Source: Isurus oxyrinchus (lineage: Eukaryota). Taken from it: 64,000 nucleotides of DNA. Shown here piece after piece: positions 20,077 to 55,833 of this stretch. Below the pieces are notes generated by a model that saw only the letters and a list, made by a program, of their open reading frames with translations, had not been told where the DNA came from and made no database searches. Location of the stretch: NCBI GenBank assembly GCA_026770705.1, contig JANJGN010000002.1, forward strand, positions 170,376,001-170,440,000, in the 5' to 3' direction. Position numbers and translations under genes: made by a program. How positions within the stretch are numbered: position 1 is the first letter of the stretch; each line of letters opens with the position of its first letter.

Positions 20077-20093
20077 GAAAACGAAAATGAAAC
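20077..20093 (+). promoter_or_regulatory. Tandem ISRE / IRF element
   Basis: GAAAACGAAAATGAAAC = GAAA-NN-GAAA-NN-GAAA, ~210 bp upstream of the RBR ATG in a CpG-enriched non-repeat region. Confidence 0.7.
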
Positions 20094-20210
20094 AGGACTT
20101 CGTCTCAACAACAGCTGCGTTTGACGGAGCAAAGGTTCTCACTGCTTTGATGTGACTGGTTCGTGGGACCGCATTTAATTTTATTGGTTTAGCCATAACC
20201 AAATTAGGAC

Positions 20211-20232
20211 ATTTCGTTTTGTGGAAATTTCC
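20211..20232. promoter_or_regulatory. IRF half-site next to an NF-kB-like palindrome
   Basis: ATTTCGTTTT (rc AAAACGAAAT) followed by GGAAATTTCC at 20223-20232. Confidence 0.4.
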
Positions 20233-20299
20233 TGTTGTTCCAAACTGTCTCAGAGAATTTTGAGCACGTCATTTGGGAGTGAAGCAGCGAAGAAGGATA

Positions 20300-20375
20300 A
20301 TGGAAGTTGTCGAGAAGCGCTACGATCCCAACGACACCACTTTGAAATTTGTAAAGGGAAAGGATGAGATCACAG
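20300..20375 (+). CDS. RBR E3 ligase coding exon 1
   Basis: ATG at 20300, MEVVEKRYDPNDTTLKFVKGKDEIT, phase-1 donor G|gtaaa. Confidence 0.85.
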
Positions 20376-23300
20376 GTAAAATCACAATGCACATCAGTAG
20401 CTTTATAGCTTGAAAATAAAATCAGAGGATTTTATTTGGAGCGATTGCAACATCAATAAACAAAAACTATTTATATTTATTTAGCGTCATTAACATAACG
20501 TAATCGTTAACCTAACAAAATAATCTTAAGGAGCAGATCATTGTGAACAGTTTTCTTTAAGGTCAGCAGCAAGTGCCCTCGCTTTGCAACTGATTGGAAT
20601 TTTTATGGTCGTAATTCTAATGAAAACTGTCTGTTTCAGGAGAAGATGATGACCCAAATGCTCTGAGAGCAGAAATGTCCTGTGGACACGCTGTAGACCC
20701 CAATTCACTCACAGCATGGTGTCGGAGCCTAATAGACCAGGTCTGTACATCTTTAAGTTTTATTTTATTTCTTAAGCAAAAATAAAAATACCTGGAAAAA
20801 CTCAGCAGGTCTGACAACGTCTGTGGAGACGAACACAGTTAACGTTTCGAGTCCATATGACTCTTCATCAGAACTAAGGAAATAGAGAAATGAGGTGAAA
20901 TATAAGCTGGTTGAGGGGGGTGGGACAGGTAGAGCTGGGTAGAGGGCCAGTGATAGTTGGAGGCACATAAGAGATTGCCAAAGATGCCATCGACAAAAGG
21001 ACAAAAGGGAGTTGACTGTGGTGATATTATTTAAGGAATGTGCAAATGGTGACATTAAGGGTAGAAAGCAAGACAAGCTAGTGGCAAATGGCCCTAGTAG
21101 GTGTCGGGTGGGGGGGGGGGGGTGCGGGGGAAGGGATCGAAATGGGCTGAAAGGTGGAGATAAAAACAATGGATCAAAATAAACTTAAAAATAGGTGGGA
21201 AAAGAAAAATATTTTAAAAAATTATAGATTATTGGAAAAAGGGGGATCGGAAAGGGGGTGGGTATAGAGCAGAGAGTAAAGTGCCTAGTCGGAAGATGAG
21301 GTGCTGTTCCTCCAGTTTGCATTGAGCTTCACTGGAACATTGCAGCAGGCCAAGGACGGACATGTGGGCATGAAAGCAGGGTGGTATGTTGAAATGGCAA
21401 GCAACAGGGAGGTCTGGGTCATGTTTGCGGATAGACTGATGCAGTAGACTAAATTGAGGGAAGTGCAAGTGAAGTGCTGCTTCACTTGAAAGGTTGTTTG
21501 GACCTTTGGATGGTGAGGAGGGGGAAAGTAAAGGGGCAGGTGTTGCACCTTATGCGGATGCATGGGAAGGCGCCATGGGAAGGAGTTGAGGTGTAGGGGG
21601 TGATGTAGGAGTGGACCAGGGTGTCTCGGAGGGAACGATCCCTGCGGAAAGCCTTCTGGGGGTGAAGGGAAGATGTGTTTGGCGGTGGCATCATGCTGGA
21701 GTTGGTGGAAATGACAGAGGTTGATCCTTTGAATGCGGAGGCCGATGGGGTGATAAGTGAGGACAAGGGGGACCCTATCATGGTTCTGGGAGGGAGAGGA
21801 AGGTGTGAGGGCGGATGCGCAGGAGATGGGCCAGACACGTTTGAGGGCCCTGTCAACCACTGTGGGTGGAAAACCTCAGTTAAGGAAGAAGGAAGACATG
21901 TCAGAGGAGCTGTTTTTGAAGGTAGCATCATCAGAACAGATGTGATGGAGGTGAAGGAACTGAGAGAATGGGATGGAGTTCTGACAGGAAGTGGGGTGTG
22001 AGGAGCTGTAGTCGAGGTAGCTGTGGGAGTCGGTAGGTTTGTAATGGATATTGGTGGACAGTCTGTCACCAGAAATTGAGACAGGTCAAGGAAGGGAAAG
22101 GAAGTGTCAGTGATGGACCATGTGAAAACGATAGAGGGGTGGAAATTGGAAGCAAAATTAATAAATTTTTCCAGCTCCAAACGAGAGCATGAAGCAGCAC
22201 TGAAGCAGTCATCGATGTACTGGAGAAAGAGCTGTGGGAGGGGTCCTGAGTAGGGCTGGAACAAGGAATGTTCCACATACCCCATAAAGAGACAGGTATA
22301 ACTGAGACCCATGCAGGTACCCATAGCCACATCTTTTATTTGGAGGAAGTGAGACGAGTTTAAGGAGATATTGTTCAGTGAGAGAACAAGTTCAGCCAGT
22401 TGGAGGAGAGTAGTGATGGATGGGGATTGTTCGGGCCTCTGTTCAAGGAAGAAGCGGAGAACCCTCAGACCATCCCGGTAGGGTAGGGAGGTGTAGAGGG
22501 ATTGGACGTCCATGGTGCTTTCATCTTCTATAAACTCTAGTTCATCCAAAACTCTGCTATCATATTTTAAACTGCATTAAATCCTGTTTACTCCTGTGCT
22601 CACTGACCTATTGGGGCCAGGGAACTGGAAATTGTTGCTATGATGTAGAGTGTCAGAGGAATTGTGGATGTATGTGGGAAGACTGGACAAGGGGAGAGAG
22701 AATGAAGTCAAGATAGCAAGAAATGAGTTCAATGGGGCAGGAGCAGGGTGACACGATCGGTCTACCGGGATAGTCCTGATTGTGATTTTGGGTAGGAGGT
22801 AGAAGCAGGCCGTCCAAGGTTGGGAGATTATGAGGTTGGAAGCTGTGGAGGGAAGATCTCCAGAGGAGATGAGGTCAGTGACTTGATGGCTTGATGTTCA
22901 GTGGTGGGGTCATGTTCCAGGGGGAAGTAGGAGGAAGCATGTGCGCATTCAGCCTCTGTGAGGTAGAGGTCAGTGCGTCAGACAACAACAGCACCACCCT
23001 TGTCAGCAGGTTTGATGACAAAGTCAGGGTTGGACCTGACAGAACAGATTTCGGCAAGTTCAGAAAGAGACAGGTTAGAGTGGGTGAGAGGAGCAGAGAA
23101 ACTGAGACGACTGACGTCACGCTGACAGTTCTCAATGAATAGATCAAGAGCAGGTGAGAATCCAGAGGGAGGGATCCAAGTGGAGGGAGAATATTGGAGG
23201 TGAGTAAAAGGATCCATTGAATGGGGAGAGGACTCCTGCCCAAAGAAGTGAGCGTGGTAACGAAGGCGACGGAAAAAGAGTTCAGCATCGTGCTGAGCCT

Positions 23301-26300
23301 GAAATTCATTGAGGTTTTCTTCTTAGCGTGTCCACGGACAGTCTATACATGGCCCAGCCAGAACTGGACACGTTTTTGCACCTTGTTGTTGAATTTGGTA
23401 AGATCTGCAACAGTGCAGGGTTCCTCTAACGATAGGCATTGTAGGAGATGTTGCATAGTTTGTGGCTCAGTTCCACATTCACAAGTTGTCGGGCTGGTTG
23501 TATATCCCCATTTTCTTAGTGACACCTTTAAATGACCTACACCAGTCCTAAGTCTGTTAAGGCACTTCCAGGTTGCCCAGTTGCAATTAGCTCCTGGGGG
23601 AAGGGTTTCATCCGGTGGAATTTCCATTGCTGGGGGTTGTTCGAGACTGGCAAGCCGGTCTTTCCACAAGACGATGCGGGCTTCAGATGAGGTTGATTGT
23701 AAAGGAACAACGCTGATCATGAAGCTCTTCCTTGACTTTAGGCAGCTGGGTGTAGGTGTATGACCATGTAGAGCGTGCCTCTCATCTGATGTTTGATGGA
23801 GTCATTCTTTCTTGCTGGCTACTGTTCTTCTTATATCAGGGGAAGCGATACCCGCCAGGATATATAGGCTGTTGGTGTTTGTTTGTTTTAAACAACCTGT
23901 GATAAGTCGGCAGCTTGCATTCAGAACAACATCCATCTTCTTAGCATGAGTAGATCTTTCCCATGCAGGGCAGGCGTATTCGGTAGTGGAATAGCAGAGA
24001 GCAAGTGCACTAGTTCGCAATGTTTTCGAGCTTGCTCCCCATTTTGTGTTAGTGAGCTTATTCAGGATGTTGTTTCATGCGCTCACTTTTGCCTTTGTCT
24101 TTTCGATGTGGTTCTTGAAGGTGAGGCAGCTGTCAAGGGTGACTCCTAAATAGATAGGGTGCTTGCAATGCGTCAGTGTTGCTCCACACCAGGTTACTTT
24201 AAGCTGGTGTTTGGCTTCACGGTTTCTGAGGTGGAATGCACAAACTTGCGTCTTTGATGGGTTTGCGCAAAGGTGATTTTCTTCATAGTAGGATGTTAGT
24301 CCCTCCAAGGCCTCAGAAAGCATTTTCTCCATGGTGTTAAAATCAGTGCTTTGGGCAGTGACACATAAGTCATCAGCATATATAAAACAACGTGTGACAT
24401 CATCTAAAGGTTGGTCATTCGTGTAGATATTGTACAGCAGCAATGCAAGCACGCTTCCCTGAGGAAGACCATTCTTCTGAATATGCCACCTACTGCGCTT
24501 CCCACCTAGTTCAGCATAGAACCGATGATTCTAAAGCATGCTTTCTAACCGCTCTGTTAAGTGAGTATCTTTTGTCATCTCCAGGATCTTGCAGAGGCAA
24601 TGTCTATGGTTCATTGTATCGTATGCTGCTGCCAGGTCTACAAAAACAGCACCTGTTACCATCCCTTGCTCAAAACCATCTTCGATATGTTGTGTGAGGT
24701 TGAGCAGTTGGCTTGTTGTTGATTTGCCAGGGCCGAAACCTGCTTGCTCTGGAATAATCTTCTCATCTGCAGTTGGTGCTATCCTATTGAGTATCAGGCG
24801 TTCAAACAGCTTATTGGTGTGGCAAAGCGGTGAAATTGGCTGAAAACTCTTGGGATCTGAGGGATCTTTTCCAGACTTTAATAGTGCTATTATATGTACC
24901 TTCTGCCAAATATTATGTAGCTTGTGTGTTACCAGGCAGTGGCTGAACAATTGCAGGAGCCATTTCTTTGCTTGCTGTCCAAAATGCTTTATCTGTTCTG
25001 TTGCTATGTTGTCAAGACCAATTGCTTTCCCATGTTTTAGACTAGATATACTACTTTCCAGCTCTTCCATGGTAAGTGGTCCAGTGAAGCTAGTGAAGCT
25101 GTACTTCTTCCTATCTAGTTGTGCTCTTGGAAGTTTCTTGTTGATTTTTCCATTTAGGAGCAACTGGTGTGCAACTTGGTTTGCAGACACATTTGGATGT
25201 TGGGCAGCTTTCTTGGGATCGCCTCCAAGTTTGCATATGAGAGACCATGCCTTCTTGCTGTTGTGTGTTGCCAGGCATTGGCACTTGCTCATTGAGGTGA
25301 GGGCATAAGGGTATGAAACTGAGTCCTTTGTTGAGCACTGAGCGTTCAACATCAGAGAGGGGAAGTTCAGGGGATATGGTGAATACATGGCTGGGGCTGG
25401 GATTGGAAGAGGGGACGGAGTCAGAGGGATGGGCAGGGGTGGAGGGTCCTGGATGGGCATTGGTGTCGATGAGTTATTGGAGCTTGCATTCCTTTGTACC
25501 TGAAAGAAAGACACAAAGTTTCTTGTTGAGGTGTCAGATGAGATGAAGAATAAAATGAAACTGGGGGCAAGGACAGCTTAGGGATAGGGTGAGTCAGCGC
25601 TGCTGGAGGGAGAGGTTGAGTGTGTTCATATGGCGGCGTATGGCACTGAGTGTGGATCTCAGGGTGCGACGAGAACAGCAGTCCAAGGAGTGTTGTATGT
25701 CGCGGAGATGATACCTGTAATTCTGGATGGGTTCAAAACATGAGGAATGGAACTTCAGTTGGAATCCATGTGGGGTAAGTCGGAGATGGAGACAGTCACT
25801 GAGGAAGGAAATTTACTTTTATTTTATTTGCTTTTATTTTATTTCTTGTTTGACCTGATTTCTTAAGTGATTATTAAAAGTGATATTTTTAACATATAAT
25901 TTTCAATTCATATTTTAGGGTCATTTCACATTCCATTGCCCTGGGGAAAAGAAAGGCACTGACGAGAAGTGTAACAAGGAATGGCCCTATGTGGAGGTTC
26001 GCAGACTTGCGCTGCTGACTGATGAGGAACAGCAGTATTTTGAAGAGAAGGTTTCCATACTTGCTGCTGCAAAGTACTGTGAATACAAATGGGTAATTCA
26101 GCATCAGCATTTAACATTTATAGTCAATATTTAATAGGAAATTTTACAGGAACTGAGGAGGTTCTGAAGTCAGGATGGAGTGAGAATATAGAGGAGTAAG
26201 GCAATCAGTACTGTTGATTCAAGCAGGATAGCAACAGTGTCTGCTTATTAAAAACAGTTTTTTAAAGGAGAAATTGAAACAAAAGCATAGTATCTTTCAT

Positions 26301-29141: not shown

Positions 29142-29251
29142 AATTCAAATACTTCTGATGCTTAAGGTGTTGCTGAATCCTTTTGATGTACAATCAGTTA
29201 AGCAAATAATCAGAGTCTTAAGATTGAATGTAAGTTTGAAAACAAAAATCA

Positions 29252-29257
29252 AATAAA
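29252..29257 (+). terminator. Candidate polyadenylation signal of RBR gene
   Basis: AATAAA ~110 nt after the stop codon in AT-rich 3' sequence. Confidence 0.5.
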
Positions 29258-29486
29258 CATCAAATAGCTCAATGCAAGTCATTTATTTTTGCTGATCAAT
29301 GTTACCTGATTTTGCTAATTATTCTATGGGATTTAATAAGATAAACATTTTGCGTTTTGTTTGTTCTGACGATATTATTGTAAGCTGTTACCAAACAAAT
29401 AAATAATTATTATAATTAACATTTCATATTGCCAACAAGATTGTTTCCTAATACTTTCATCTCTAAATTAACATGAACTTTAGTAC

Positions 29487-32462
29487 ATGCAGAACTTTTC
29501 GTTGACGGGCGGGCACGCGCCCAACCCACTCAAGCATGAAATAACACACGTTGACATTGGCCGAGCATGGCGAAGTCAACGTGCACTCTTGTGATATTTC
29601 GCTTGGTGGGCGCGCAAGGGAGACTGAGATGCACTCACCATTAAGAGGCCAGTTAAGGCCCTTGACGCACCAATTGTCTCCGAATTTATGGAGCCCGTGC
29701 GAATTTTCGGCTGTCACACGGGCAAAATGGGCAGGCGGCCAGGCCACAACTTGCAAAAGCTCATCCATGGGTGGGATAAGAGGGATCAGCAGCATTGTCA
29801 TTGTGAGTAGTGAGAGATTTTGGAGATTGTATGCTTTTCATTTCGCTTCAGAGCTGCATCCTGAGCATTTCAAGGCTTCATTTCAGGACTCATTGTTGTC
29901 TTCCAGGCCCCCTGAGAATTCAGACCACGTGGTCCCTTCCAGGTATCAGACAGCCTTCCATAACCACAGTAATGGGGATTGTGGTCTCTGCTGGTGGCAC
30001 CTCCTCTGAGGAGGAAGAGAGGGGCAGAAGGGAGAGGAGGCAAGGTGTCCCTATTCTGCCTCCAGGGGAGTGATTTGTGGGAGGACAGGCGCAGACACAA
30101 GAGGGGCAGGGCCAGCTGGCAGTCCAAAGCAGATGGGGCTACAGAAGACGTCACTATTTTGCTGCCAGCATTCACAGGCAGCGATGCAGCTACCTCAATA
30201 TGTCTGAGGTGCAATGCCAAAGGAGGCTCCGCCTTTCAAGGGAGATAGTGACCTCCATTTGCCAGATGATTGGGCCTGAGATCAGCTCCAACTATGTGGG
30301 TGGAATCCCATGCCTGTGGTTCTGAAGGTCACAGTGGCTCTCAACGTCTATGCCTCTGCCTCTTTCCAGGGGTCAGTGGGTGATCCGTGTGGAGTCTCCC
30401 AATCAGCTGTCCACAGTTGCTCCAAGCCAGTGACAGAAGCTCTGTTCAGGCGAGTATTGATTTTCATTCATTTCTGTACGGATGAGACCAGACAGGCAGA
30501 GCGAGCCAAAGGCTTTACAGCGATTACTGCGTTCCCCCGCGTCCAGGGTGCTATAAACTGTACACATGTGGCCCTCAAGGTGCCAGCAGTTGAGCCCGGT
30601 GCCTTCGTCAACAGGAAGGGCTTCCACTCCATGAACGTGCAGATAGCGTGTGATCACAGGATGCAGATTCTGCAAGTCTGTGCAAGGTACCCAGGTGCAC
30701 GCATCCTGAGACACTCCCAGGTGCTGAGGCTGTTCAGTGCTCCAGTCCAACTGGATGGATGGCTGCTGGATGACAAGGGCTATCTCCTCAAAAGGTGGCT
30801 CATGATGCCTCTCCACCATCCAAGAACAGAGGCCAAGCAGCGGTCCAATAGGAGCCACGCCTCCACAAGGGCGGTGGTAGAGAGAACCATCGGCCTTCTC
30901 AAGATGCGCCTCTGATGCCTGGGCTGTTCACAGGGAATACTACAATACCCCCCAGAGCGGGTGTCACTGATAGTGGTTGCATGCTGCATTCTCCACAATC
31001 TGGTACAGGCAAGGTGGGGACCCACTGGAGGAAGAGGATGTTGACACAGCTGCACAGGCAACAGAGTATCCAGTAGTGAGTCCGAGGACGAGCACAGTGA
31101 GGAGAACACTGAAGGCATGGATGCTGACCTGGGTAACCTCCAGGGAGACAGGGACATCTTTGATCCAACGCTCCTTCAGCTAGCCTACCGAATAAGAATC
31201 ACTACCAGATGCAGGGCTGCAGGCTCCAAACTCAACCCCTGACAGGACCATTTCCTTTACCACCAGCATACACTTTGTGTCTGTGCAATAAAGTTTCAGG
31301 AGACATACATACATCATTACATAATGATCCACCCTGCACCTACAGAACAAATGAAGCATACAGAGCCCCACAGCACAAAATAAAAACTCATTTAGTTGTG
31401 CGTGTGAAACATAGCTGAAATGAACATTAACCTTAATCACACCTCTAAAAAATATAAAGCAAAGTGGGGGCACAAAATATCACCAGTGATAAGGCTGTCT
31501 TGTGCTTAAGGTGCTTTACATTTACATTTGCGGGTGCAACGTCTAGGTGCTCCTCCTTCATTGGCACCGGCATTGGAGACAGCCTGCTCACTGTTGTCCT
31601 GTTGGCCATGATGACCTTGGCGGGCATCCTCTGGCCCATGGAGCCTGTGCTGGTCCCGACTGGATGGAAACAGCCAGTGCCTAGGCTGGCATTTCCCCAG
31701 TCGCCGCAGCCTCACCAGATGCCATGGTGACTGGCAGAGTGTCAGAGGAGCTGCTGGCATCATCCAGATGCCCTGAGAGAAGCCTACAGTGATGACAGGC
31801 AGCTCATGCGCCAACGTGATGCTGCTTTGGACCTCCCTGCTCAACATTCGTGGAAGGGAACGTAGCTGGGATCCTGCGGGTGGCCAGCCCTTAACTGTTC
31901 TGCACACTAGCTCATGCCAACACAGTACTCATCTTTCCCAATTGCAATTGGCCTTTGATGTGCTTCCAGCACTGCACCCATGAGCGCCTCACCACGTTGT
32001 GGCTGCTGACCCTGGATGCCATCTCCTCCTAGGCCTTCTTGGTGAGGTGGGGGGTCCTCCTCCTCCTGTCTCTAGGAACAAGGGTGTCCCTCCTGGCCGC
32101 CACCTGCTCCAGGAGGGCGCAAGGCACTTGTCAGAGAAATGCGGGGCCAACTGCCCCACCAACCGACCTGCCCTCCCACCTGCTTGTCCAACCACAGTGG
32201 AATCCATTGAGAGTTCAGCGTCCTTCCATGGCTGCCTTCCAGGGGCTATGTGGGCTGCTTTTGAATCGGCTGCTGGGTCGCCATTGGGCCCAGCAGACAT
32301 CATGCCCCCGCCCCTTCTCGGAGCTTCCCCAGCCATATTTCACGTTGGGCGGGCCTTAATTGGCCCGCCAGTGTGAAATCGCGGTCCGTTCCCAATTGCG
32401 GACGGCAGCCACCTTCCTGACCACCACTGCCAAGCCCGCCCAACACGGGCAAAATTTTGCCC
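29487..32462 (+). mobile_element. Harbinger transposon (~3 kb) with transposase pseudogene
   Basis: Right TIR AAAATTTTGCCC, degenerate left ATGCAGAACTTT, flanks TAC/TAT; ORFs 30077..30325 and 30310..30915 (QGAINCTHV, NRKGFHSMNVQ, DDKGY, VVERTIGLLKMR). Confidence 0.9.
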
Positions 32463-32932
32463 TATGTGTTCTTCATGAGTCTGGCTTTTTCTTTTCCATT
32501 CTTCATTTATATGTAGGTGTGGCTGTAGCTTTATAATTGTTGTTTGATACCATTGCAAATGCAAGTGAGCATATTTTTCAACCTTTGTTGCATTTCTCAT
32601 AGGAGTGCTTGATGCAGTTGCATTGAATCGCTCTCTGCGCTTTCTTAATGTTAAACTATTTAAAATAAACATTTAATTTTAAAAGTGTTAAGATATACAT
32701 GAAGAAAATTGAAGGGCAATTACTGTACAATTTGTGTAAATAGGTTGTTGGTGCACTGTGCTGTAAAAGAGCTGGAGAGAATATACATCAGTGACTATGT
32801 GTGTTAAGCAGTGTGCAATTTTTATCTTTTTTAAATTCACATTATATCTGAGCTGTTAAACATTTATCACTCTATTGTTTCAATTTGTATAAAGGTAAGA
32901 AATTTGGCACAAATACATTAAACGTTTTATAT

Positions 32933-33000
32933 CAGTGGTTCCCAAATCATTGGTTGCAAACCCCAATGGGGTCGCAGAGGTCACTTTTGGGATTGCAGCT
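32933..33000 (+). mobile_element. hAT/Charlie-like terminal fragment
   Basis: CAGTGGTTCCCAAA start with a ttgcaaacccc..ggggtcgcag dyad. Confidence 0.4.
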
Positions 33001-40328: not shown

Positions 40329-40329
40329 C

Positions 40330-42130: not shown

Positions 42131-42303
42131 TCTTGAGAAAATGCTACAGGTATTGGAATAGTTGGAAATATACTGTTTACGCTATTCTCAACTTTGTTGG
42201 TAAAATTGGTTTCGTGCCAAGTTAGAAAACAGTTCTTTGCTATTTGATGCCCTCCAAAGAAAATTATGTTCCTTCCCAATGCGATTGAACTATGTATCTG
42301 GGC

Positions 42304-43201: not shown

Positions 43202-44884
43202 GAGCAGCTGTCTTAAAATATTCAATTCTCTGCTCACATGCCGGTTTCTACATAACATCAGTGTGGGGGCTCCATGGAGCTAAAGTTTATGTGGTTCAGT
43301 ATCAAAGCTAGTTTCATGGTGCTCCTGCAAAGTGTCTTGGGGTGTTTTACTCTCTTCAAGGTGCTATATAAATGCAAGTTGTTGTTGAAACATATGATCT
43401 GAAGTATGATTTTCCCTTTCTTTCAGCATTAACAGAAGAATTTGCAATTCAATCTGTTGTAAAGATTGCTGGAATAAAAAGGTAATTATTATTCCTCTGA
43501 CCTTTTCTTGTCATGAATAAAATTGTAAGTTTCAGATTAGCAGACTTCAGGCTGCTTAGAGAAACTCTGTTGCAAATACTAATAGATTGGAAGTGCCAAG
43601 CTCCAAAATCTTAAATGCTTGTGGCCTACCATCCCATAGAACAGCAGGTCAGTGGTCGATACACTAGCCGTTAAGACTGGCTATAATATTCTCTTCATTT
43701 TCTGTGCCAATTTCAGGCTGAAGTAGAATCTATGTCAGCTTTTCTCTTCTCTGGTTTAATTGATGAACTAAACCAGAACATCACCTTGTTCTTGGCTTTT
43801 TATATTAGGTACATTACAGTGATGAGGCCTTTATAGGTGTAGCGGAGACAAGTTGTATGGTGGTGGAGACAAATACATGAGTTTGCACTCTACATGGTTA
43901 CTGTATTATTAGAGACTGGGAGGTGGGGGAAGAGTGTGAATTTATAAAGCAGCTTATTACTTCCTTCAGATTCATGTCAAAGGGTCATACTTAATGAATT
44001 CCTTTGTCAGCACATTTCATGTAGTAAAACGGGAGCAAGGTGAAACGCATAAGCAATTTAGAGGTGAAATTGCTGTCAACAGAATCAAGCTTTTATTTGA
44101 TTGGTCATGTGATATGCAGGGGCATCACTGGCTGGGTCAGCATTTATTGCCTACTCCTAATTGCCCTCAAGAAGGCGGTGGTGAGCTGCCTTCTTGAACT
44201 GCTGCAGTCCATGTGGTGTAGGTACAATGTTGTTGGAGTGGGAGGAAATTTCAGGATTTTGTCCCAGTGACAATAAAGGAATGATGATTTGGTTCCAAGT
44301 CAGGATGGTGAATGGCTTGGAATTGAACTTGCAGGTGATAGTTAGTGTAAGATAAAATGGAACACCTTCATCAGAATATCAGAAACTGTGGGGGGGGATG
44401 TATAAGACCCAAACATTTAAGATTGGAAAGCTGATGCCTGGGCTCAAGTGTGAATAGTGAATGGATGATTAAGCGCAAAGAACAAAAAAAAATTGATTCA
44501 GCCTTTATCAGGCTTGGGGATGGCAGTGCACTATTATCCAGCGCCTAGTCCTGATGAGGCAGACAGCATGTAAACTTGTGCTGTCTGTGCATTTACATGA
44601 TTGTAGTGTGCAGCCCAGCACAAAACATGCTGGCGGCTGGCTGCACGCTCAGCAGGGTCCAAGCGTGTGCAAAACTGGTACATTGTGCAGTTCGCCTTCA
44701 TCTCTGAAAGGCAGCCAGCCCTCTTAAAGGGGAGCTACGCTGAGGATACCGGAAGTGCTGGAACACTCAGGAAAGCTTTGCTAGAAGGAAGAGAACTGTA
44801 AATGGAATACCAGACCAGAGAGAGGGCTCATCAGTAGGGGCTAAAAATCCTGTTCCTGGAGTGTGTTTTCCGAATTTCCCATTA

Positions 44885-44955
44885 GGGAGAATTTTCTCCC
44901 CATCAGGGTTTGGGCGGGAGCCCACCCCCCACTCGTCGACCCAAAGATTCTGGCC
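44885..44955. mobile_element. Miniature (~70 bp) Harbinger MITE
   Basis: GGGAGAATTTT ... AAGATTCTGGCC. Confidence 0.5.
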
Positions 44956-46067
44956 ATTATCTCACTGCTGCCTAATATGGCTGTGGATTGCCCATTGTAA
45001 TAATCAAACAAATTTACTTAAGTAATATAACAGATGACAGATAAAATACTTTACTGACATTGAGAGAAACAAGGACTCAAAGAAATGATTTTTATAAATA
45101 CATTGAGCTACCATTTTAGAAAAGTTGCTTTAATATACAAATAACATTCTTTTGTCATCCAAATTTTTTACTCAGTTTCTTAAATAAATTTAAAAAAAAT
45201 TTCTACCAGCTCACCTCAAACAACATCATTAATTCATTTTTGTCCAATTTTTGAATCTGGATAAAATTCTGCAAAGGGATCTTTTAACCTCCACCATGGC
45301 CCACACCCACCACCGTGCCTCCATCCCCCTGCCATTGACTGGTTGTCCTGTCACATGCTGGGGACTCTAATTCAACATATATCAGTGATGGGTCTCTCTC
45401 TCACACAAAGATGAATGCAATTTGGCTTCAACCTGTCTTCAACATAGGTCATCTTGCACGCAAGTATAAACTACTTCTATTTCAGAGTGTGGTGAATATC
45501 TTAGCTCACAATCATTTCTAATGCATTCCTGTCAAGTAAAAGTAATGTTATTTTATTGTAGGGTTCTAGCTGCTAATGACATCGGCGATTCACAGTAAAG
45601 TGATCATATTTTTTCATAAGATCCACACTGTGATGTTAAATATTCATTGCTAGCAGCACAAATTCAATCTACTAAGGGTTGGCAAGCAAAACATGCAGAA
45701 TAAAAGCAAAAGCTTACCAAAGACTTTTTTTTTTTAAATCACATTGGCAATTCTCTGTGAAAATGACATATTCTGCCAGATGAGCCTGAATAACTCAAGA
45801 GAATTATTGGTGCTGGTCTGTCTTAAAAATTTAAAAAGAAAATAATTCATTCAGATCAATTGCAAATCATGTTTTTCTGAATTTGTATGTAAATCGATGT
45901 AAAATGAAGTTAACGGTGATTTTAAAAAATCAAGTAGACTGAAAATACACCTTTTATATTTTTAACACTTTGATTTTTCAGTCGGATACTCTCTTTAGTT
46001 TTCACCTCCCTTTCCAAAACAGGTAAAATATGCTCTCTTTGACTTTTCTTTTGGTCCTTTCTTAAAA

Positions 46068-46996
46068 TTAAACAACTTTCTCCACATACTCTTCTGCTGT
46101 TTCATTTTCTGTCTCTGTTGTTTCTGGTTCACTCTGCCTCCTTGCTGTCATTTTCCCAGATATTTCTTCTTGCACTCCTTCCCCTTTCTTTATTTCCACT
46201 AACAAAACTCTCTCTTCCTCTTGGCACGCTTTTTCACTCATAAATGGCTTCTCTTCTCTTGCTGAAGGATAATTATTTTGTTCCATATCTATTGGCTCCT
46301 TACAACCCTGGTGTTGATGTGATTCCTCATTTTCGCTGATTTGTACCATTTCTTTCTGTTCCTCTTGTTCTAACTCAGTTTTATTTTGAGCTATTATATC
46401 TTTTCCTTCATGTACTATCGTTTCATCTTTCATCCCTTCTACTTTAACACATATTTTTCCTTCTGTTCCATTTTCCCCTTTAATATTCTTTTCATCTGCA
46501 TTGCTTTCCATGAACTCTTCATTTAAATGTTCACCCCCATTTTCCTTTATCGTTTCCTTTATTGTTTCTGTTTTCCTCTCACTGTCCTTTAGCTGTCCCA
46601 CAGCGCCTTCTCTCATAATATTTTCTTTCCTACCTATCTGACACTGCTCTCCTTGCGTACTTTGCATTTCCCCAGGTGTAACCATGTCATCTGCTTCAGT
46701 GCTCTTTTCTTTTATAGTCTGTGTATCTTCTTTCACTTCTGTTTCTTGTGTCTGTCTTTCATTTTCCTTCATTTCACAATTTCTTTTCTCTATTTTCTCC
46801 ATTGTTGTGTTTCTCTCTATTGCTACTGTTGCATTATTTTCTGGAAGATCTTCTATAATTCCATTGGGAGGTTGATTGCTTTGCTCACAATGGTGATACT
46901 TTGCACCATCTCCCATTCCCTCCAATTCAAGGCTTCCATTTTCATTTCTGATTGACATTGGTTCGTTTGATTGTTTTTCTTCATCTTCATTCTCTC
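46068..46996 (-). CDS. USP large Glu/Lys-rich C-terminal exon
   Basis: Within ORF 46068..47063; phase-1 acceptor ..ctcaaag|GAGAGAAT matches the phase-1 donor at 49721; ~310 aa low-complexity acidic sequence. Confidence 0.75.
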
Positions 46997-49900
46997 CTTT
47001 GAGACGTTTTGGAAAGATGACAATGATAAACAATGTAAATAACCCGATTACAATTAAATTCAAAGCATGGTGTTATTTTATGATTGTCATTAAAATGGGA
47101 AACCTAGTTCATAATAAAACAATCTCAATTTGCAAAATAGAGGACTCCAACTTTAATACATAGCAGAAACTAGGCAGGTGGGCAGTTAAAACTGGGCAGG
47201 TTAGTTACCTGCTCAGAATTCACTCCTTTCCCTCTGCCTGTAACCTTAATTTGAAAATTTCTGCCACTCTGACATGCTTGTCTAATTGGGCCCACAAGAA
47301 GATCTGTTAATAGGGGTACAATTCCCTTAATAGGACAACAACTACATTTAATCCAAGCGGGGAAGAGCTATCAGCTCTCCCAACAAGTGAAAGCAGGTTG
47401 GGTAATTTTTGGGAAAGGTGAAGGAGTCCTCCAAGGTAATAAAATTGCCTACTTCTGTGGAGCAAAGAGGAGTAGGAAACCCTCCCATGAGGCCGTCTTA
47501 AATTCTCCTCCCTGTGACTTAACTGGTGGCTTGCCGATGTCTTCCTTTGGATGATGGCTTCTGGCCACCTGAATGTCCTCTCTAGTCCACAGGTCAGCAG
47601 TAGCTTTACATCCTTTATAGCTGGGCAGCTGTACAGCAGTATGTAGACAAAGCCCAGGAGTTAAAATATCCGGGGGCTCAAACTTAAGCCAGCGAGTACA
47701 TTTTTTTCTTGCCCCCTATCCGCCCAACCAAATTCCGCTGTGGATTCAAATTGACACCAATGACTGAATCATGAGGTGATGAGCAGAATATCTGAGCAAT
47801 CGTTAAATCTCAGATTACAAATGTACATGTTGTCATAATTCATCGGCTGTTTTACAAATCATGATGCAAGTGTTTGCAAAGTATTTACCTCACTAAAAAG
47901 GTCATTGGACCTGTTCAGCAGCTGATAATTCAGTGTGATGCTGAGCATCTGACACAATCAATTAAAGATACCTCTGTGTTTACACATTCCTTTCAAACCC
48001 AAAGTAACTCATTGTGAGGAATAAAGTCAAAATTATTCAAGTAACTTGCATTATGTTAAACTGACTGTCAGATGTAAAGAATTCTTCAGGTATAATCTTC
48101 TTTCTAAGAGTAGGGAGATTTTCAGAAAATCTCTTTGTGAATTCTGTTTGTTATTTAGTATTCAGAATGCAATAATTTAATAATTTACAAATTACTAAAG
48201 GTATTTTTGATTTAACCTGTTCTATGGAACCTGCATTATCAAAACCTAAAATCAACATTTGGAGGAAAGAAAGTTTATGTGCAAAATATGTAAACTGCAC
48301 TAACTCACACTGCAGCCTAATTTGAATTTAATTTCCGCATAGGCTGGGATACGAATAGTACAAATAGTACAAAATGGGCAAGAGTTCCTGGAATGCATTC
48401 AAGATAATTTTCTGCAGCAGTATGTTTCCAGTCCAACGAGAGGACATGCACTTTTGGACCTGGTTCTGGGTAATGAGTTAGCTCAAGTGAATCAAATATC
48501 AGTGGGAGAGCCTCTAGGGAGACAGTGACCATTGTATCATAAAGTTTAGGTTTATTATGGAAAAGAACAGGGAACAATCCAGAGCAGGGACAATTAATTG
48601 GGGGAAAACCAACTTCATTGAGATGAGAATGCATCTGAGTCAAGTGAGTTGGAATTAAATGCTGTCAGAAAAGACGGTGGCTGAACAATGGGCCACTTTC
48701 AAAGAAAAGGTATTGCGGACAATGTCATGGTGTATTCCCTTGAACAGGAAAGATGTGGCAAATAAATCCAGAGCACCCTGGGTGACGAGAGAGATAGAGG
48801 TAAAGATAAAAGGAAGAAGTTGGCGTACAACAGATGTCAGTTAGAAAACACTACTGTGATACTGTGGTCTACTTTATGCATACAATAAAATATTAATAAA
48901 TGGCTGCAAACTTGAATAATGCAAGTTGTTCAGTGTGTTACTAACATTGCCAAGGAGGTGGGAGTCTCTGCGTTGGAGTAGATACTGCTCAACAGATAGC
49001 TTTTTGGGTCAGAATCCAAAGGGGAGGGCGGGACCAGCAAAAGCAGGTGACCACCTCAGCCTAGAGCTTTCCAGAAGCAGAGAAATAGCAGAATATTAGG
49101 GATGTGCAAGTATCTGCTAACGGACTGTGACTATCTGGGACTGGAGAGCTTCCCAGAAATCCACATTTGCCTCTTCTCTATTCCCCTCAATACACCACTG
49201 ACACCTTGTATAGGACATGGTCTGGGGGATACAGGCACATCATACGTCTGGACGTAACCATCCGGGGGAAACTGAGCTGGAAAGAGAACATTAAGACCAG
49301 AGACTCTATCTCTCATTATTCTCTTCTGGCACTGCATTCATGCAACATGGGTTGTTACACTGCTGACGTAATTCTTTCTTTCCTCATTATTGTTTATGCC
49401 TAAGCAATTGTACCCACAGCGGAATTCAATAAGGACAATAAAATTGAATTGATTGGCTGATTGAAATTTATTGGAGTACACATGTATATGAATATACATA
49501 CATGCTTATCTATGTATATACATTATACTTGTGAATAAATCATTATTGCCCCATTTTAATTAATAATTTTAGTAACTCAAGGCAAGAGCTGCACTCCTGC
49601 ATGAATTTGAAGGCAACACTTCCTTATATTTGAAAAACCCCGTATGAGAATTTAATACATATATCAAGTTGCTGAGTCCAAACTGATCTAAATCATATCA
49701 GAATGAAAGGCTATATTTACCTTGATAGGTGCTTACTTCCTCCTTCCTGTACATTAACATGTATGCTGTAGGTGAACTGTGGTAAAAGTGCATTGTTAAA
49801 AATAGTTGGCATCTTAAATTTATAGTCAAAAAATTCTGGGGTTAATGTATTAGGCAAACTAATGGATAATTAAGAAGATTTAATCAGAAACTCAGTTACA

Positions 49901-52900
49901 CTACACAACTACCTTCTGTAAGGCATGCTCGATGGACTGCCTACACCACCACAGTCTGTTCGAGAAATGGGGCCTTGTATCTGCAACGGAAATAATTCAT
50001 TTCTTGTTGAATGTAGGATAAAGCATTACATTTCAAAGAATGCAAAACTCATGTTCATGAATAAAGAGGGAAGGGATGTGAAGCAATGTTCCCTCTGGGC
50101 AGCTTGGATGTCTGGCTGTGCAACAATGGGGAATGTGCCACTTAGAGAACAAACAAAAGTTTGAGGAAACGCTGTTGGAGAAGGAGGCACAGAAATTGGA
50201 AGAATATAGGATCTCAGAGCTTCTGGCACTTTTTGACCCCATGACAAACTCTGATTCAGAATCTTGGACACTTTTGCTGCCCAACTGTTTAGGTTTCAGC
50301 AGTAATTTGGGAATGCATCTGATGCAGCATTCCTGGGAAACCTGTCAGATATGTATTCAATTGGTTCAGTAGTATCTGCAATTACCAAAAGCACATGTAG
50401 GTTCCTTGCTCAGCTAAATGTGGGGCACAGAGTTAAACAGACACTCAATAATCGATTCCAGAGTGATCAATGAGTGACCCAACATCACAGGGAGAGCTTT
50501 TCAGGAAACTGTGATCCTTTTTATCTTGGGCCTGACTAACTGTAACTCCATCTTTGGTGATGGCAGGATGCCATTCCAAGATTACATTGCTGCTGCAAGG
50601 TGGGACTGCCTGCTGTGCTCTTAGAGACTTCCATGACTGGGATTTGGTCTGTGCCCAGTGAAAGCAAATTTTATAAAATGATTTTATCCACAGCAAAATA
50701 TCTAGAAATCTATATAAGTTCCAAAATATATTTGCATTACATAAAGTGTATGAAAAATTACCCTTGAAAAGTCTGAAAGTCAGAATATTTTTCTCAATAA
50801 AGAAAATAATATTTACCTCATTGACTTTTGTATCATCAAAACGGTACCAATTACAGGAATAAATTGGTTTAATGTGTGCAACATAATGGCCACTGCCATA
50901 TCCTCCAGAATGATCACAGATGGCAAACAGCTCATATGTAGTGTTATGCTAGAGTGAGATTGAAGCACAAATGTAAGAAAGAGAATTGTATCATAATTTT
51001 TTCCCCTAAGATTTAAAGTATGAAAAAAACTTCATAAAATCCTTATGAGGACTTCAATTAGATGAGTATCAAGTTTTAATGTAAAGCTCGAGCATAAGAT
51101 GTTATTAAACATGATATTAATGTTGCACGTGTTGAAAACAAACTGGCCATTTTCTCCAGCACAATTCACAGCAATTTCCTTATGGACAGCTGACCAGAAG
51201 TCACAGAGGAATCATCTACTTCCACTTGACGAGTGAGAGAATAGTATTTTATTTAGTTGCTCTTGACATAGTGCAATTCTGACTTTCCCTCAATACACAT
51301 GGGCCAGAATTTTTCCCGTTGGCGAATTGGGGGCGGGGCCCGCTCGCCGACGCGAAAATGACGCGGGATGACGTCGGAGGGAACTCCTGACATCATCCCG
51401 CTCCATTTAAATATTCAGGAACGCGGGCAGACAGCGCAATCAGCTGTCCGCCCGCTGAACTGTCAATGGCCAATTGAGGCTGTTGACAAGATAATTAAGA
51501 CAATTAAAGGCCCTGCCCATGCAAACTTAAGGCAGGTGGGCAGGCCAGGAGCCCCAGCGGGCTTCTGAAAAAACATGAAACCTCATCCACTGGCGGAATG
51601 AGGTTTCATGTCTATTTTTTAAAAGTGTATTAAAGTTTAAGTCATATTTATTAACATGTCCCATCTCGTGTAACATTATCACATGAGGGGGACAAGTTGT
51701 TAATTTTTTTACCATTCTATTTTTAAACTTTGAAGCACTGTCACCAATCTCCCTGAGACAGCACTTAGTCACAGGGAGATGTGCGCTCTTTCGCGCACAT
51801 GCAGGAAAGAGCACAATTTGACAGTTGGGGATTCCCTCCCCCCACCGCACCGGAAGCGCATAGTGCTTCCTGTTGGACAGACCACTGGGTAGGCCTTAAT
51901 TGGCCCGCCCACTTAAAATGGTGGCGGTGATCAGCTGCCCGCCCACCGCCAAGCTGGTGGGGCCCGACCGCCCACCAAGGGCAAAATTCTGCCCATGATG
52001 CTGAATTCAACAGCAGTTTCTCACCTGTGAAAACCATCTACAGAGAAGCATATTCAGTTCAATGACTCAACGGTGCAGACAGGTTTCAACAAAGCAACAG
52101 TTAACTTTATTACAGAGAGCTTTTCAAGTGCTATATGCTTGATCAGGATCCTTAACCGGAAGCTCCACTCCCACCTGCCCCCATTCCCCACCCCCCACCC
52201 CACTCCTGAATTACTCATGCTTAGGGCTCACTGGCTGGTACTTAAACAACACGTCACAGGATCCCTGATTGACAGGAGAGGCTATACCTTCAGTTACTGC
52301 ATTTCCTCCCCCTTTACAATTTCTATTTACAAAAAAATTTGAATATCCAATAATACATATATGTACAATCTCAATTAATTAAAGATCAAGTCTCTGAGGT
52401 GGTCTCCTTATACAGCTAGTGGCGTAGCTCTATCACTTGAGGTTCCTCAACAGGATTGACAGGATCAGGAGCTGCAGTATGAGGCTCAACATTGGAATGT
52501 GGGGCAGTTCAGGATTTGGCAAATCTACAGAGACATTGGGCATGTCTATTCTAGGTCAATCGGTCACCTCATGAATTAATGGTTCGACATTACTAACAGG
52601 ATGAATAGTTGGTTGTTGGAATGTCTCTCTGGCACGAACATGATCTATGTATATACAGATGATTCTACCTCCCATTTGCACTTGGAAAGGCAATGGGCCA
52701 GTCTCTGAGACAATAGTTTCAGGAGTCCAACAAGGTCCATTGCCAAAATTCTGCACGAATACCGTGTCACCTTCAATGAATGTGCAACTTTTGCTGTGTA
52801 CATCATGATGTAATTTTTGATTTTTCTGATGACACTGTACCTTCCCCTCTAAATTTGGAAATATTAAGTATAACCATGTACATAGGCGGCATTTCATTTA

Positions 52901-55833
52901 TAATTCAGACAGTGTTGAACCTGTAGTCGAATGTGCTGTATGATGACTGAAAAGAAAGTGTGAAAGCCGAGACTCCAGAGTACCTTCTGATAGCTTCTTC
53001 TTATCAGATTTGAAAGTTTGCACTGCCCTCTCTGCTATGCTGTTCAATGAGGTGTGGTAAGGGGCTATTTTAATATGTCTGATTCCATTCAAATCCATAA
53101 ACCCCTGAAACTCTGTACTGGTAAAAACGCTACCATTATCTGAAGCAACTTCACGTTTGCTGAAACTATGACATAGTGTCTCTACAGTTGCGCTAGACAT
53201 TGAAGGCTTGACGTCATACACGCCCATCCAGTTGGAATGTGCATCTATAATTAACAAGAACATGGTTCCCAAGAATGGTCCTATGTAATCAATGTGCAAT
53301 TGTATGCAGGGTCCACCAGGCCATTCCCGCAGATGCAGGGGAGCTGCAACAGGCTACTTATTTTGTTGCTGGCACTGGAGACAGCGCTTCACCATGTTTT
53401 CAATATCTCCATCGATGCCCAGCCAACATTTTCATTTTTGATATGCCTTGATGTGCACTATACAGTTCTGTCAAGAGAGGCTCTCTGCCTTGTGGTGGAG
53501 CCACCACCCTCGATGCCCACAACAAAATCTTGTCTTGACAGCTCAACTCCATCTGTCTGACATGGAATGATCTCAATTCTTCAGATACAGGTGAGTTTGG
53601 CCAATCTTCTAAAACAAAATCTCTGACTCTCGATAAGGTTGGATCCCTGTTTGTCCAATTTTTAATCTGTTTCGCACACACAGGTGAAGAATCAAAGAAG
53701 TTCAGTAATAGTACTAGTTCCTGCAGTACAGGAGTATGCACAAGACTGCCTGGTAACGAGAAGTGACTGAGTGCACTTGCAAAGTGTAAGCCAGGGCGGT
53801 ACATAAAAGTATATTCATATGCAGATAACATCAGAGCCCAATGTTGGATCCTTGCTGATGCAATTGGCGGAATGGGATAGTCCTCACTGAACAAACTTAT
53901 TAATGGTTTATAGTCCGACACAATGATGAATTGGCAACCATGCAGATACTGGTGGAATTTCTTCACCCCAAATACCACCAATAAACCTTCCTTTTCTAGC
54001 TGGGAATATCTCTTCACAGCTGTGAAGAGGGTTCTCTGGGTATAGCCAATGGGTCTTTCGGACCCATTTTCCATTTTATGGGATAGCACAGCTCCCACTC
54101 TGTAGGGAGAGGCATTGCATGTTAATACCAGCGCTTTGATGGGTCAAAGTGTACTAGCAGACACCACCCCACCACCACTCTCCCAGACCTGACCTGCACT
54201 AGAGGCCCTTGCCCCAGCACGACACTGAAAACCAGCCTGGGAAAAATGACTTGCCTGTTCCCCTCACGAATGCATGGCACCTCTTCCTTGATGCTCTATG
54301 GGCGATGCTTGCAAGTGCTGTGCAAAGTTGTGTGCACTCACCTCCGAGTTCCCTCGAAGCTCAGGTCACCAGGTACAGTCCTTTTAAAGGCAGTTGTGAA
54401 GCACGCCATTCTGAAATCATGCTGATGTGGCAGTAAATTTAATGTGGGGAAATGATGTCCCCAGTGCGCAGTGGCAGGAGACGAGCCTGCCATTGGCTGG
54501 AGCGGACGATTGCAAACTGGTTTCACAAAGGCATAAAACTGATTTCTGGCCTTCTCACTTTATTGTTTCTCAACCAACCCCACCTGCGCCCCCCACCCAC
54601 CATGACGCCCGACCCCAACAGGGTCAGAAAATTCCAGCCATAGTCTTCAATTCCCGGCACAAACAAACTCTTCTTTCCTAGCCATCAAATCCATCCCTCT
54701 CTCCGCAAACCATCTGAGGCTGAGCCAGACCATTGCAACGTATTTGCTCCTGAATTGTTTCCTGAATGACATATCCTTCCAAGAATGCCTATTCCACCTT
54801 CATAATACTGTGCATCTCCTTCTCTGCTTCAACCCATCTGATGCTGAAGTCCTCACCCTAGCTTTGTTACCTCCAGGTTTGGCTATTCAAATGCTCGGTT
54901 GGTTGGCTTCCCACCTTCCAACATCTGTAAAGGTCAGCTCATCCAAAATTTGCATCAAGTTCCATTCGCTTGCTGTCCTATATAAGCTCCCAGCCTGGAA
55001 ACATCTTAATTTAAAATTCTCAATGTCTTCAAACCCTCCAAGGCCTCACCGATCCCTGTCTCTGTGACCTCCTACAGCTGGACAAACCTTCAAGATCTCT
55101 TCACTCCTCCAACTCTGCCCTCTTACAGATCCTCGATTTTAACTGCTCCACCATTTGCAGTTGTGCATTCAGCTCCTGAGACCCCATGCTCTGGAATTCC
55201 TCCCTACATCTCACCAGCTCTTTCCTTTTAATCACTTCATAAAAAACTCTCTCTTTGATCAAGCATTTATCCTAATATCTCCTTATGTGGTTCGGTGTCA
55301 AATTTTGTTTGAAAACACTTCAGTGAAGCGCCATAAAGCATTACACTATGTTAAAGGTGCTACAGAAGGCACATTACTGTTGTTGAATAGAAAAAAAGAG
55401 ATGGTGTTAAGTACATGCCCATATAAGAGCTGTCTGGATTTCTGCCTATTTGACATGCAGTTCATGTCAATGCTACGCAACCTCCCCTCAACCCAGGAAA
55501 GAGTTTCCAACGATACAATGACAAGATGCATGACTATTTCTACATTCCTCAGCAAGAACAACTACTTACATATATATAAACACGCACGCGCAGGCACACA
55601 CACAGTCTTATTAATGCATTTAAACATTCCATAAGATGATCTCCTATACTGTATACTAATAAGCCTCAGACAGAGCGTTTTGCCTTGTTTGATGTGCCAT
55701 GCACAGTGATCCTTACCTTCTGGCTCTCATCTTTGGCTGGTTTCTGGCTTTCTTCATATTCTTCATTTCTGGGTATTTTCGATGACAGTGGCTCCAGGTA
55801 TGTTAGATGCGTCTTTGCTGCTTCTTTGGATTC
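46068..55833 (-). CDS. USP-family deubiquitinase, 3' part (His box plus acidic tail); USP18/USP47-like; 5' exons not found in window
   Basis: Exons 55833-55717, 50948-50817, 49980-49913, 49776-49721 and 46996-46068 join in frame with AG/GT ends: ..YELFAICDHSGGYGSGHYVAHIKPIYSCNWYRFDDTKVNE..SSPTAYMLMYRKEE..GENEDEEKQ.. The GHY, FDD and AYMLMY motifs are USP His-box signatures. Confidence 0.85.
48320..48850 (+). mobile_element. CR1 ORF2 endonuclease/tether fragment in USP intron
   Basis: F.QQYV..PTR....LDLVL, D.DHCI, INWGK.NF, APWVT. Confidence 0.7.
49721..49776 (-). CDS. USP exon with AYMLMY motif
   Basis: Acceptor ttttaccacag|; SPTAYMLMYRKEEVSTYQ; phase-1 donor G|gtaaat (alternative donor at 49737). 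Confidence 0.85.
49913..49980 (-). CDS. USP small exon
   Basis: Acceptor ttccgttgcag|, donor AG|gtagtt; IQGPISRTDCGGVGSPSSMPYR; provides the phase needed for the next exon. Confidence 0.75.
50817..50948 (-). CDS. USP His-box exon
   Basis: 132 nt, phase 0-0; HNTTYELFAICDHSGGYGSGHYVAHIKPIYSCNWYRFDDTKVNE. Confidence 0.92.
51302..51994. mobile_element. Harbinger-type MITE (693 bp) with 3-bp TSD ATG
   Basis: ATG|GGCCAGAATTTT ... AAAATTCTGCCC|ATG. Confidence 0.9.
52040..54160 (-). mobile_element. Gypsy remnant (RNase H, integrase, PPT, LTR)
   Basis: ORFs 53400..54098, 52898..53299 (HIDY, SDNG, AERAVQTFK) and 52556..52897 (GP.S-like); polypurine GGGGGAG at ~52305. Confidence 0.88.
54170..54638. 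mobile_element. Harbinger terminal fragment
   Basis: Ends AAAATTCCAGCC. Confidence 0.5.
54650..55385 (+). mobile_element. L2-clade LINE 3' fragment
   Basis: ctctggaattccctccct and the ..gttaaaggtgcta..tgttgttg L2-type tail. Confidence 0.6.
55717..55833 (-). CDS. USP exon (pre-His-box linker)
   Basis: Acceptor tttttccatag|, donor AAG|gtaag; 117 nt; ESKEAAKTHLTYLEPLSSKIPRNEEYEESQKPAKDESQK. Confidence 0.7.

Follow-up and report, generated by a model that had tools for sequence, protein, structure and literature searches.

The window analysed here, a stretch of 64,000 nucleotides from the shark Isurus oxyrinchus (C2:170376001-170440000 in a genome of 4.98 Gb), contains two convergent genes, an RBR ubiquitin ligase of the ARIT clade on the plus strand and a ubiquitin-specific protease (USP), termed USP-C, on the minus strand. 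Both belong to a larger cluster in which a third gene encodes a small ubiquitin-like protein, referred to below as the tag. Coordinates outside 1-64000 are extended window coordinates (the genome position on C2 is 170376000 plus the coordinate, and negative values lie to the left of the window), and a total of 463 kb around the window was studied. Approximately 40% of the window sequence consists of repeats found elsewhere within the same 463 kb. Mackerel sharks have the proteins nearest to those of the window: the ligase shares 93% identity with one from Cetorhinus, and the protease 97% with one from Carcharodon.

An original prediction, made from the window alone, described these as its only two reconstructable host genes. 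Both are real, and further traces exist, namely two 3' exons of a broken protease gene, USP-B. The cluster's own ubiquitin-like gene lies outside the window and was invisible to that first reading.

The ARIT ligase gene

The ligase gene consists of four exons, followed by two poly(A) signals:

20300-20375, plus strand: ARIT exon 1, with the ATG and polar residues at RING1 ligand positions 1-2
20640-20740, plus strand: ARIT exon 2, RING1 Cys40/His42
25919-26092, plus strand: ARIT exon 3, RING1 Cys66/Cys77 and linker helices
28695-29141, plus strand: ARIT exon 4, IBR, RING2 with predicted catalytic Cys215, and stop
29252 and 29398, plus strand: poly(A) signals 3' of exon 4

All introns are GT-AG and the joined exons encode 265 amino acids, the length originally predicted for an RBR ligase on this strand. 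All three joints are present in assembled contigs (1046-1052 nt) from three of four public runs, and two of the three in the fourth run. These runs come from three studies; that they are RNA is a guess, none of the runs listed being recorded as such, and the spliced joints themselves constitute the evidence.

ARIT is an RBR-only clade named in 2025 by Grimholt et al. (PMC12234341); statements taken from this and the other papers cited here refer to the accessible parts of each. The clade is described in teleosts, reptiles, elephant, echidna and monkeys, and was not found in hominoids (PMC12234341). Exon 4 as query retrieved 77 homologues, which carry many different automatic names (si:ch211-212k18.15 among them) and come from sharks, rays, bichir, lungfish, teleosts, newts, anteater, tenrec and aardvark. 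Identity to the bony-vertebrate homologues ranges from 46 to 68%, with 52-68% for bichir, lungfish, tuna, medaka and afrotherian or xenarthran proteins. Identity and motif blocks that match the published alignment by eye place the shark ligase in the ARIT clade, with which it shares an RBR-only architecture and the lack of a transmembrane segment; unlike the 'typical' RBR described there (PMC12234341), its RING1 has no first zinc site.

A near-identical relative (P0083) gives only IBR-type Pfam matches, and its AlphaFold model, built with 77 sequences (pLDDT 89.2, pTM 0.58), contains the RBR alone, without a long C-terminal helix. The best structural matches of this model are the RBRs HHARI, ARIH2, parkin, HOIL-1 and HOIP (Foldseek E down to 4e-7; structural alignment VIA Z 8.1, rmsd 6.5, 146 aligned). 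Cys215 in RING2 is kept in 72 of the 77 homologues and aligns with the active-site loop of Ariadne-1 RING2, whose cysteine we take to be catalytic. Two residues further on, Asn (53 rows) or Tyr (18) is found and His never in the 77 rows. At the first zinc site of RING1 (positions 22, 25, 45 and 48) cysteine occurs in none of the 77 rows, 7-9 of which are gapped, and the second site is kept in 69-70 of them; the eight-ligand C3HC4 RING1 expected of a canonical RBR is therefore not found in this alignment. The structural alignment sets ARIT residue 22 on HOIP residue 699, presumably the first RING1 cysteine. The residues at position 24 (hydrophobic), Trp52 and Pro67, which RING chemistry leads us to regard as E2-contacting sites, are mostly kept, and extra conserved Cys/His residues surround the IBR and RING2.

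SP-RING and U-box domains are RING folds with one or both zinc sites replaced by polar residues. We read the RING1 of ARIT as a one-zinc RING, like SP-RINGs; unlike SP-RING and U-box domains, however, it serves as the RING1 of an RBR. ARIT resembles parkin, HOIL-1 and ARIH in its predicted fold and catalytic RING2 cysteine, but differs from them by the lack of autoinhibitory or targeting domains, by the one-zinc RING1 and by Tyr/Asn instead of His after the catalytic Cys. It is filed here as an RBR variant, predicted from sequence and model to work like an RBR.

More distant ARIT-like RBR genes are located at C33:4.07, 4.95 and 7.57 Mb and on the small contigs C1732 and C1512 (L003-L007), with 38-42% identity in exon 4; two copies of this subfamily carry a stop. 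No USP or tag match was found in the stretches examined around the genes on C33 and the two small contigs, nor any tag match at the 11 shark loci around the distant ARIT-like genes, which serve as an informal check on chance proximity of tag and ligase. In anteater and tenrec, several ARIT copies lie on one chromosome (P0029 and P0040 clusters).

The USP-C protease gene

The 5' part of the protease gene lies to the right of the window and its 3' part within it:

102907-102865, minus strand: USP-C exon 1, right of window
97764-97668, minus strand: exon 2, intact Cys box, right of window
97487-97348, minus strand: exon 3, right of window
93091-93003, minus strand: exon 4, right of window
90170-90039, minus strand: exon 5, right of window
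78474-78379, minus strand: exon 6, right of window
68475-68341, minus strand: exon 7, right of window
64286-64245, minus strand: exon 8, right of window
55717-55833, minus strand: exon 9, insert in the catalytic domain
50817-50948, minus strand: exon 10, His box with catalytic His and Asp
49913-49980, minus strand: exon 11
49721-49776, minus strand: exon 12, last strand of the catalytic domain
46068-46996, minus strand: exon 13, long acidic low-complexity tail and stop

This 13-exon model encodes 691 amino acids and aligns gaplessly with the annotated Carcharodon relative (97% identity). It is based on splice signals and on that relative, the reads having served for the ligase and tag joints; intron 1 carries a GC donor. 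The His-box motifs (50936/50891) and the final TAY-type motif (49769) lie where the original prediction had placed them, and the measured stop-to-stop distance to ARIT, 16,927 nt, agrees with its convergent spacing of ~17 kb. A pseudogene, which it had considered in case a Cys box was lacking, is rejected: once the exons to the right of the window are added, the Cys box, His box and Asp all fall in a single open reading frame.

The annotated relative of USP-C matches Pfam UCH with an E of 2e-47, and P0084 has no further Pfam domain. Compared with solved structures, the short isoform of the relative scores 163.5 bits against USP47, 121 against USP7 and 64-76 against USP18. In a 40-row tree USP-C falls in a clade of 27 rows (support 100/99) together with shark paralogues and 'USP47-like' proteins of sturgeon, bowfin, bichir and teleosts, and this clade is unchanged when either long branch is taken out. 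Identity with USP18 was rejected on this clade and on the USP18-type motifs, which belong to a gene on C20; identity with USP47 was likewise rejected, the true USP47 being on C10 and no further Pfam domain, such as the C-terminal ones of USP47, being found in P0084. Because its clade stands apart from the C10 and C20 genes, USP-C is neither; the original prediction had called its His-box text USP18/USP47-like. A USP cluster on C25 was also considered as a possible USP18 and set aside, as its motifs resemble what we take to be the USP8/USP50 pair.

Grimholt et al. define a 'USP18-like' clade as sister to USP18 (PMC12234341). With this clade USP-C shares a minimal USP domain and linkage to ARIT, as in the salmon gene, but it differs by an acidic tail of ~310 amino acids. 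The tree groups USP-C with ray-finned 'USP47-like' proteins; its probable orthology to the salmon gene rests on the clade description and on synteny, ARIT linkage being common to both.

The basic, Cys-containing C-terminus of basking-shark and other orthologues is encoded here after the USP-C stop (45998-46068) and is missing from the Carcharodon long isoform too, which means that this lineage has lost a possible membrane-anchoring tail. Five proteins of 1900-3200 amino acids (P0097, P0100, P0101, P0104 and P0124) contain 9-20 stretches matching the USP query, which suggests tandem USP18-like arrays in some species.

The ubiquitin-like tag gene

A single intact match was obtained when the genome was searched with the tag:

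-90409 to -89789, plus strand: ubiquitin-like tag gene, two exons, 94 amino acids, ~90 kb left of the window

The joint across the 336-nt intron of this gene occurs in all four runs. The protein is a single domain, exon 2 of which matches Pfam ubiquitin (E 1.1e-5), with 32 identities to the 76-residue ubiquitin. It ends in LPGG plus three residues, with Ser and Pro at the positions of ubiquitin Arg72 and Arg74, and the di-glycine is present in all six aligned tag sequences. The tag thus has the fold and the di-glycine of a conjugatable modifier, conjugation itself being predicted. A protein atlas returned only generic ubiquitin-family clusters, among them a chordate 'polyubiquitin-like' one of 96 residues (score 0.81), taken as a lead only.

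Identity with ISG15 was rejected, as the tag has one domain rather than two and no LRLRGG end, and ISG15-like genes are found on C13. There, a tandem array at C13:23.06-23.20 Mb (L069, L070, L087) contains ~10 two-domain ISG15-like genes ending in LRLRGG. The 'polyubiquitin-like' genes of trout, possibly ISG15, do not count here as support for the tag.

Promoter motifs and likely interferon induction

Motifs of the interferon-stimulated response element (ISRE) type were found upstream of the intact cluster genes:

20077-20093, plus strand: triple GAAANN (ISRE/IRF-type) motif, 223 nt above the ARIT ATG
103248: ISRE-like motif of USP-C, 341 nt above the ATG
130 nt above the putative ATG of USP-A: ISRE-like motif
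-90504: triple ISRE-like motif of the tag gene

The triple GAAANN motif has one match in the window, against 0.03 expected, and 3 of 100 shuffles had one. The original prediction called it a perfect triple ISRE; it is indeed the sole match in the window, but 'perfect' is slightly generous, as the strict ISRE consensus ends ...AC-T and this motif ...AC-A. The USP promoter, which it had proposed to scan after recovery of the 5' exons, has the motif at 103248. A strict GAAANNGAAA[C/G] match lies at most 400 nt above the ATG in four of the four intact cluster genes, compared with a background of 36 in 1157 windows and 18 in 405 CpG-rich windows.

In salmon, ARIT rises by a log2 fold of >11 after interferon-gamma and >4 at 48 h after infectious salmon anaemia virus (ISAV), and USP18-like by >4 and >2, respectively (PMC12234341). 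Interferon induction of the cluster genes is likely in sharks as well.

At C2:170.300-170.312 Mb (L024, L025) a stretch of 700 nt or more is duplicated, each copy carrying a triple GAAA motif with no gene found downstream; a degraded ARIT-like exon-1 trace lies nearby. The triple motifs at -75710 and -68461 belong to a duplicated segment and were rejected as gene promoters, no gene having been found downstream; a motif at 209250 was discarded because it lies inside a retroelement.

Linkage in other species and in metagenome contigs

Synteny of the pair, which the original prediction had proposed to test, is conserved beyond this shark. Relatives of ARIT and of the USP are on one contig in each of the 11 species whose contig data cover both genes (Carcharodon, Cetorhinus, Mustelus, two Scyliorhinus, Heptranchias, Heterodontus, Rhinoraja, Mobula hypostoma, Polypterus and Xiphias), and their accessions are at most 24 apart in five of nine species with accessions for both. 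In salmon, USP18-like (chr7:23,855,978-23,861,969) and ARIT.1 (chr7:24,018,681-24,045,226) are 157 kb apart (PMC12234341).

A metagenome scan with the ARIT alignment alone yielded eight loci, seven of which carry a ubiquitin-like domain; none was seen in L104. The most complete is the teleost-like L103:

4714-3403, minus strand: ARIT
5402-6144, plus strand: tag
9203-10752, plus strand: ARIT
16257-15641, minus strand: USP

Here the tag has the same two-exon layout and LPGG end as in the shark, and the USP18-like gene is tail-to-tail with ARIT at ~4.9 kb, as in the window, so that tag, ARIT and USP form a triad within 11 kb. In L107 a free tag follows ARIT after ~240 nt, with 45% identity to exon 1 of the shark tag over 38 residues. 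In L100, L101 and L106 a ubiquitin-like domain and ARIT share a single reading frame, with a junction di-glycine in two of the three and none in L100, and in L105 such a domain is probably fused to ARIT across introns. L102 has a separate, more ubiquitin-like neighbour of ARIT: at L102:2398-2063, a teleost-like ARIT is tail-to-tail with a ubiquitin-like gene whose product has LRLRGG and then a long acidic tail.

The tag family also occurs inside 2 of 150 proteins among the USP matches listed, P0161 (whole tag) and P0126 (exon 1). These may be read-through gene models, which would still show that tag and USP are adjacent. No ARIT-USP fusion was found with the ARIT profile among 147 + 5 USP relatives; no search of the large database was aimed at longer ARIT forms. 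Taken as a whole, gene identity and linkage are solid.

Organization of the cluster

From left to right the cluster consists of the tag remnant, USP-A, the tag, a damaged ARIT, USP-B, the window ARIT, USP-C and a receptor gene, and each of the three gene types also occurs in broken form:

near -170668: tag remnant, frameshifted
about -94997 to -143030, minus strand: USP-A, open over seven core exons, with USP18-type motifs
-39267 to -52113, minus strand: second ARIT, damaged, one IBR Cys replaced and ~2.5 kb insertion in the last exon
-28849 into the window, plus strand: USP-B, broken, in-frame stop near -9800
about 2672-2743 and 4482-4541, plus strand: USP-B 3' exon remnants (approximate tblastn limits)
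about 188468 (L042:5468-6418): intronless GPR35/GPR55-like receptor flanking the cluster on the right

Exon 1 of the damaged ARIT was not found at the locus, nor were two exons of USP-B, including that of the His box. USP18-type genes occur twice in the genome, as USP-A (C2:170.233-170.281 Mb, L027-L032) and at C20:68.03-68.09 Mb; they group together at 99/96, both being flagged as long branches. Within the window, transposon-derived frames at 15127-15780, 30280-30915, 21482-25577 and 52898-54143 fill introns and the intergenic gap, and by motif we take them to encode a Harbinger-like transposase, a LINE reverse transcriptase and a Gypsy-like integrase.

Relation to published work

Neither the cluster nor the tag is described in the literature searched, whose coverage mostly excludes subscription papers, and the same literature yielded no report of ARIT-USP linkage or of the extension of either clade to cartilaginous fish. 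The accessible main text of PMC12234341 makes no remark on cartilaginous fish, on ARIT/USP18-like linkage or on a linked tag. Other reports are suggestive at the level of gene names only: 'RNF144A-A' is raised by poly(I:C) in cod (PMC3534563) and by infectious pancreatic necrosis virus (IPNV) in trout (PMC11258392), and, according to a salmon expression quantitative trait locus study, is co-regulated with a 'ubiquitin-like protein' (PMC7316828); bioRxiv 693333 and PMC13030082 give support of the same kind.

The original prediction had drawn an analogy with ARIH1, USP18 and ISG15. As an identity this does not hold, for the ligase is ARIT, the protease has its own clade and ISG15-like genes are on C13. 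Of the linked innate-immune module that it envisaged, the linkage, the intact USP, the USP promoter motif and the co-induction in salmon (PMC12234341) stand, and identity with the ISG15 system falls. The cluster resembles the mammalian ISG15-HERC5/ARIH1-USP18 system (PMC12234341) in pairing a ubiquitin-like tag with a ligase and a protease dedicated to it, presumably under interferon control in the shark. It differs in having a one-domain tag ending in LPGG plus a tail, a minimal RBR ligase and clustered genes, and this shark genome has separate genes of the ISG15-like and USP18 types.

A possible tagging pathway and its alternatives

We propose that tag, ARIT and USP constitute one interferon-inducible pathway of tag, writer and eraser, parallel to ISG15, a reading to which we give slightly less than an even chance. 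After viral sensing, IRF/ISGF3 factors would bind the motifs and turn the cluster genes on together. A cluster USP would trim the three residues beyond the di-glycine, and E1 and E2 enzymes encoded elsewhere would charge the tag. ARIT would then bind the loaded E2 via its one-zinc RING1, accept the tag on Cys215 of RING2 and pass it to host or viral targets, from which the USP18-like protease would strip it off again. Ser and Pro in place of Arg72 and Arg74 would make the tag dependent on a protease that matches it and on an E1 that tolerates it, and this dependence would account for the genes having stayed together.

Several points weigh against this proposal. The ISRE pattern was picked after the window motif was known, the first exon of USP-A was sought near its motif, and a 10-kb ISG15-like control locus has no strict ISRE-like match. 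In one sample the tag transcript contig extends through the ISRE-like motif, which may therefore lie in the 5' untranslated region. No E1 or E2 match was found near the cluster (exon-level searches, giving lower bounds), so the module is not self-sufficient. Same-contig linkage is only modest evidence, because the contigs are chromosome-scale, and in four of the nine species the accessions are 265-1134 apart and not adjacent. Linkage of the tag was seen in one other vertebrate-like contig and in the two gene-model fusions, and the 5' end of L101 is chimeric (gyrase match). The tag might also be harder to cleave or to charge because of the proline two residues ahead of its di-glycine end. Finally, we infer both induction in sharks and conjugation of the tag.

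The tag might instead be a non-covalent regulator of ARIT acting in trans, in the manner of the parkin Ubl or of allosteric ubiquitin, with ARIT and the USP handling ordinary ubiquitin. RBRs are activated allosterically by ubiquitin-like proteins, and ARIT, with 265 residues and the RBR only, has no autoinhibitory domain of its own. N-terminal ubiquitin-like fusions to ARIT exist, and that in L100, being without di-glycine, looks more like a regulatory domain of the parkin kind than like a tag; the missing E1 and E2 and a tag tail that departs from the Arg-rich ubiquitin tail point the same way. However, the free copies in the shark, L103 and L107 keep a di-glycine and a short removable tail, which a pure binder would not need, and regulation alone leaves the fusion and linkage of the tag with the protease (P0161, P0126) unexplained. 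We regard this explanation as unlikely but far from negligible. It is quite unlikely that the genes are co-regulated interferon-stimulated neighbours which act independently and are kept together by shared regulation or low rearrangement. Immune genes often cluster, the broken copies speak of birth-and-death turnover, and the salmon pair is separated rather than adjacent; yet three divergent contigs carry in-frame ubiquitin-like/ARIT fusions, which suggest that the genes are functionally linked, and the gene types are exactly the tag, writer and eraser of one chemistry.

A further alternative, that ARIT is an ISG15 ligase and the USP a de-ISGylase, draws on the ISG15-like di-ubiquitin genes on C13, on USP-A with its USP18-type motifs and its grouping with the C20 gene, and on Grimholt et al., who raise ISGylation by ARIT as an open possibility and place USP18-like as sister to USP18 (PMC12234341). 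It appears very unlikely in view of the much higher score of the near-identical relative of USP-C against USP47 than against USP18 structures, the separate clade of USP-C, the conventional USP18-type gene already present on C20, and a linked tag that is single-domain and has no LRLRGG end.

Beyond the proposed tag, writer and eraser pathway, we tentatively suggest, with confidence somewhat below even, that jawed vertebrates possess a second clustered interferon-switched system composed of an LPGG tag, a one-zinc-RING1 ARIT writer and a matched USP eraser. Its ancestor would be an older fusion of tag and ligase such as divergent eukaryotic contigs show, its ligase would have been lost toward hominoids, and the cluster would be the origin of the USP18 lineage.

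Implications

The window genes are new members of recently named and functionally blank clades, and the triad is a candidate for a new variation on interferon-induced ubiquitin-like modifiers. Even if the tag did no more than regulate, neither the conserved linkage nor the reach of the two clades into cartilaginous fish was found in the literature searched. Conjugatable ubiquitin-like modifiers newly found in vertebrates are rare. If the proposed pathway is real, it would provide a testable substrate for ARIT and USP18-like, both of them fish genes whose strong response to interferon still lacks an explanation. It would also extend the RBRs by a structurally new type with a one-zinc RING1 and be relevant to how USP18 originated. 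Fish and many tetrapods would then own an antiviral tagging system beside ISG15, the ligase of which would be missing in humans, given the loss of ARIT in hominoids (PMC12234341).

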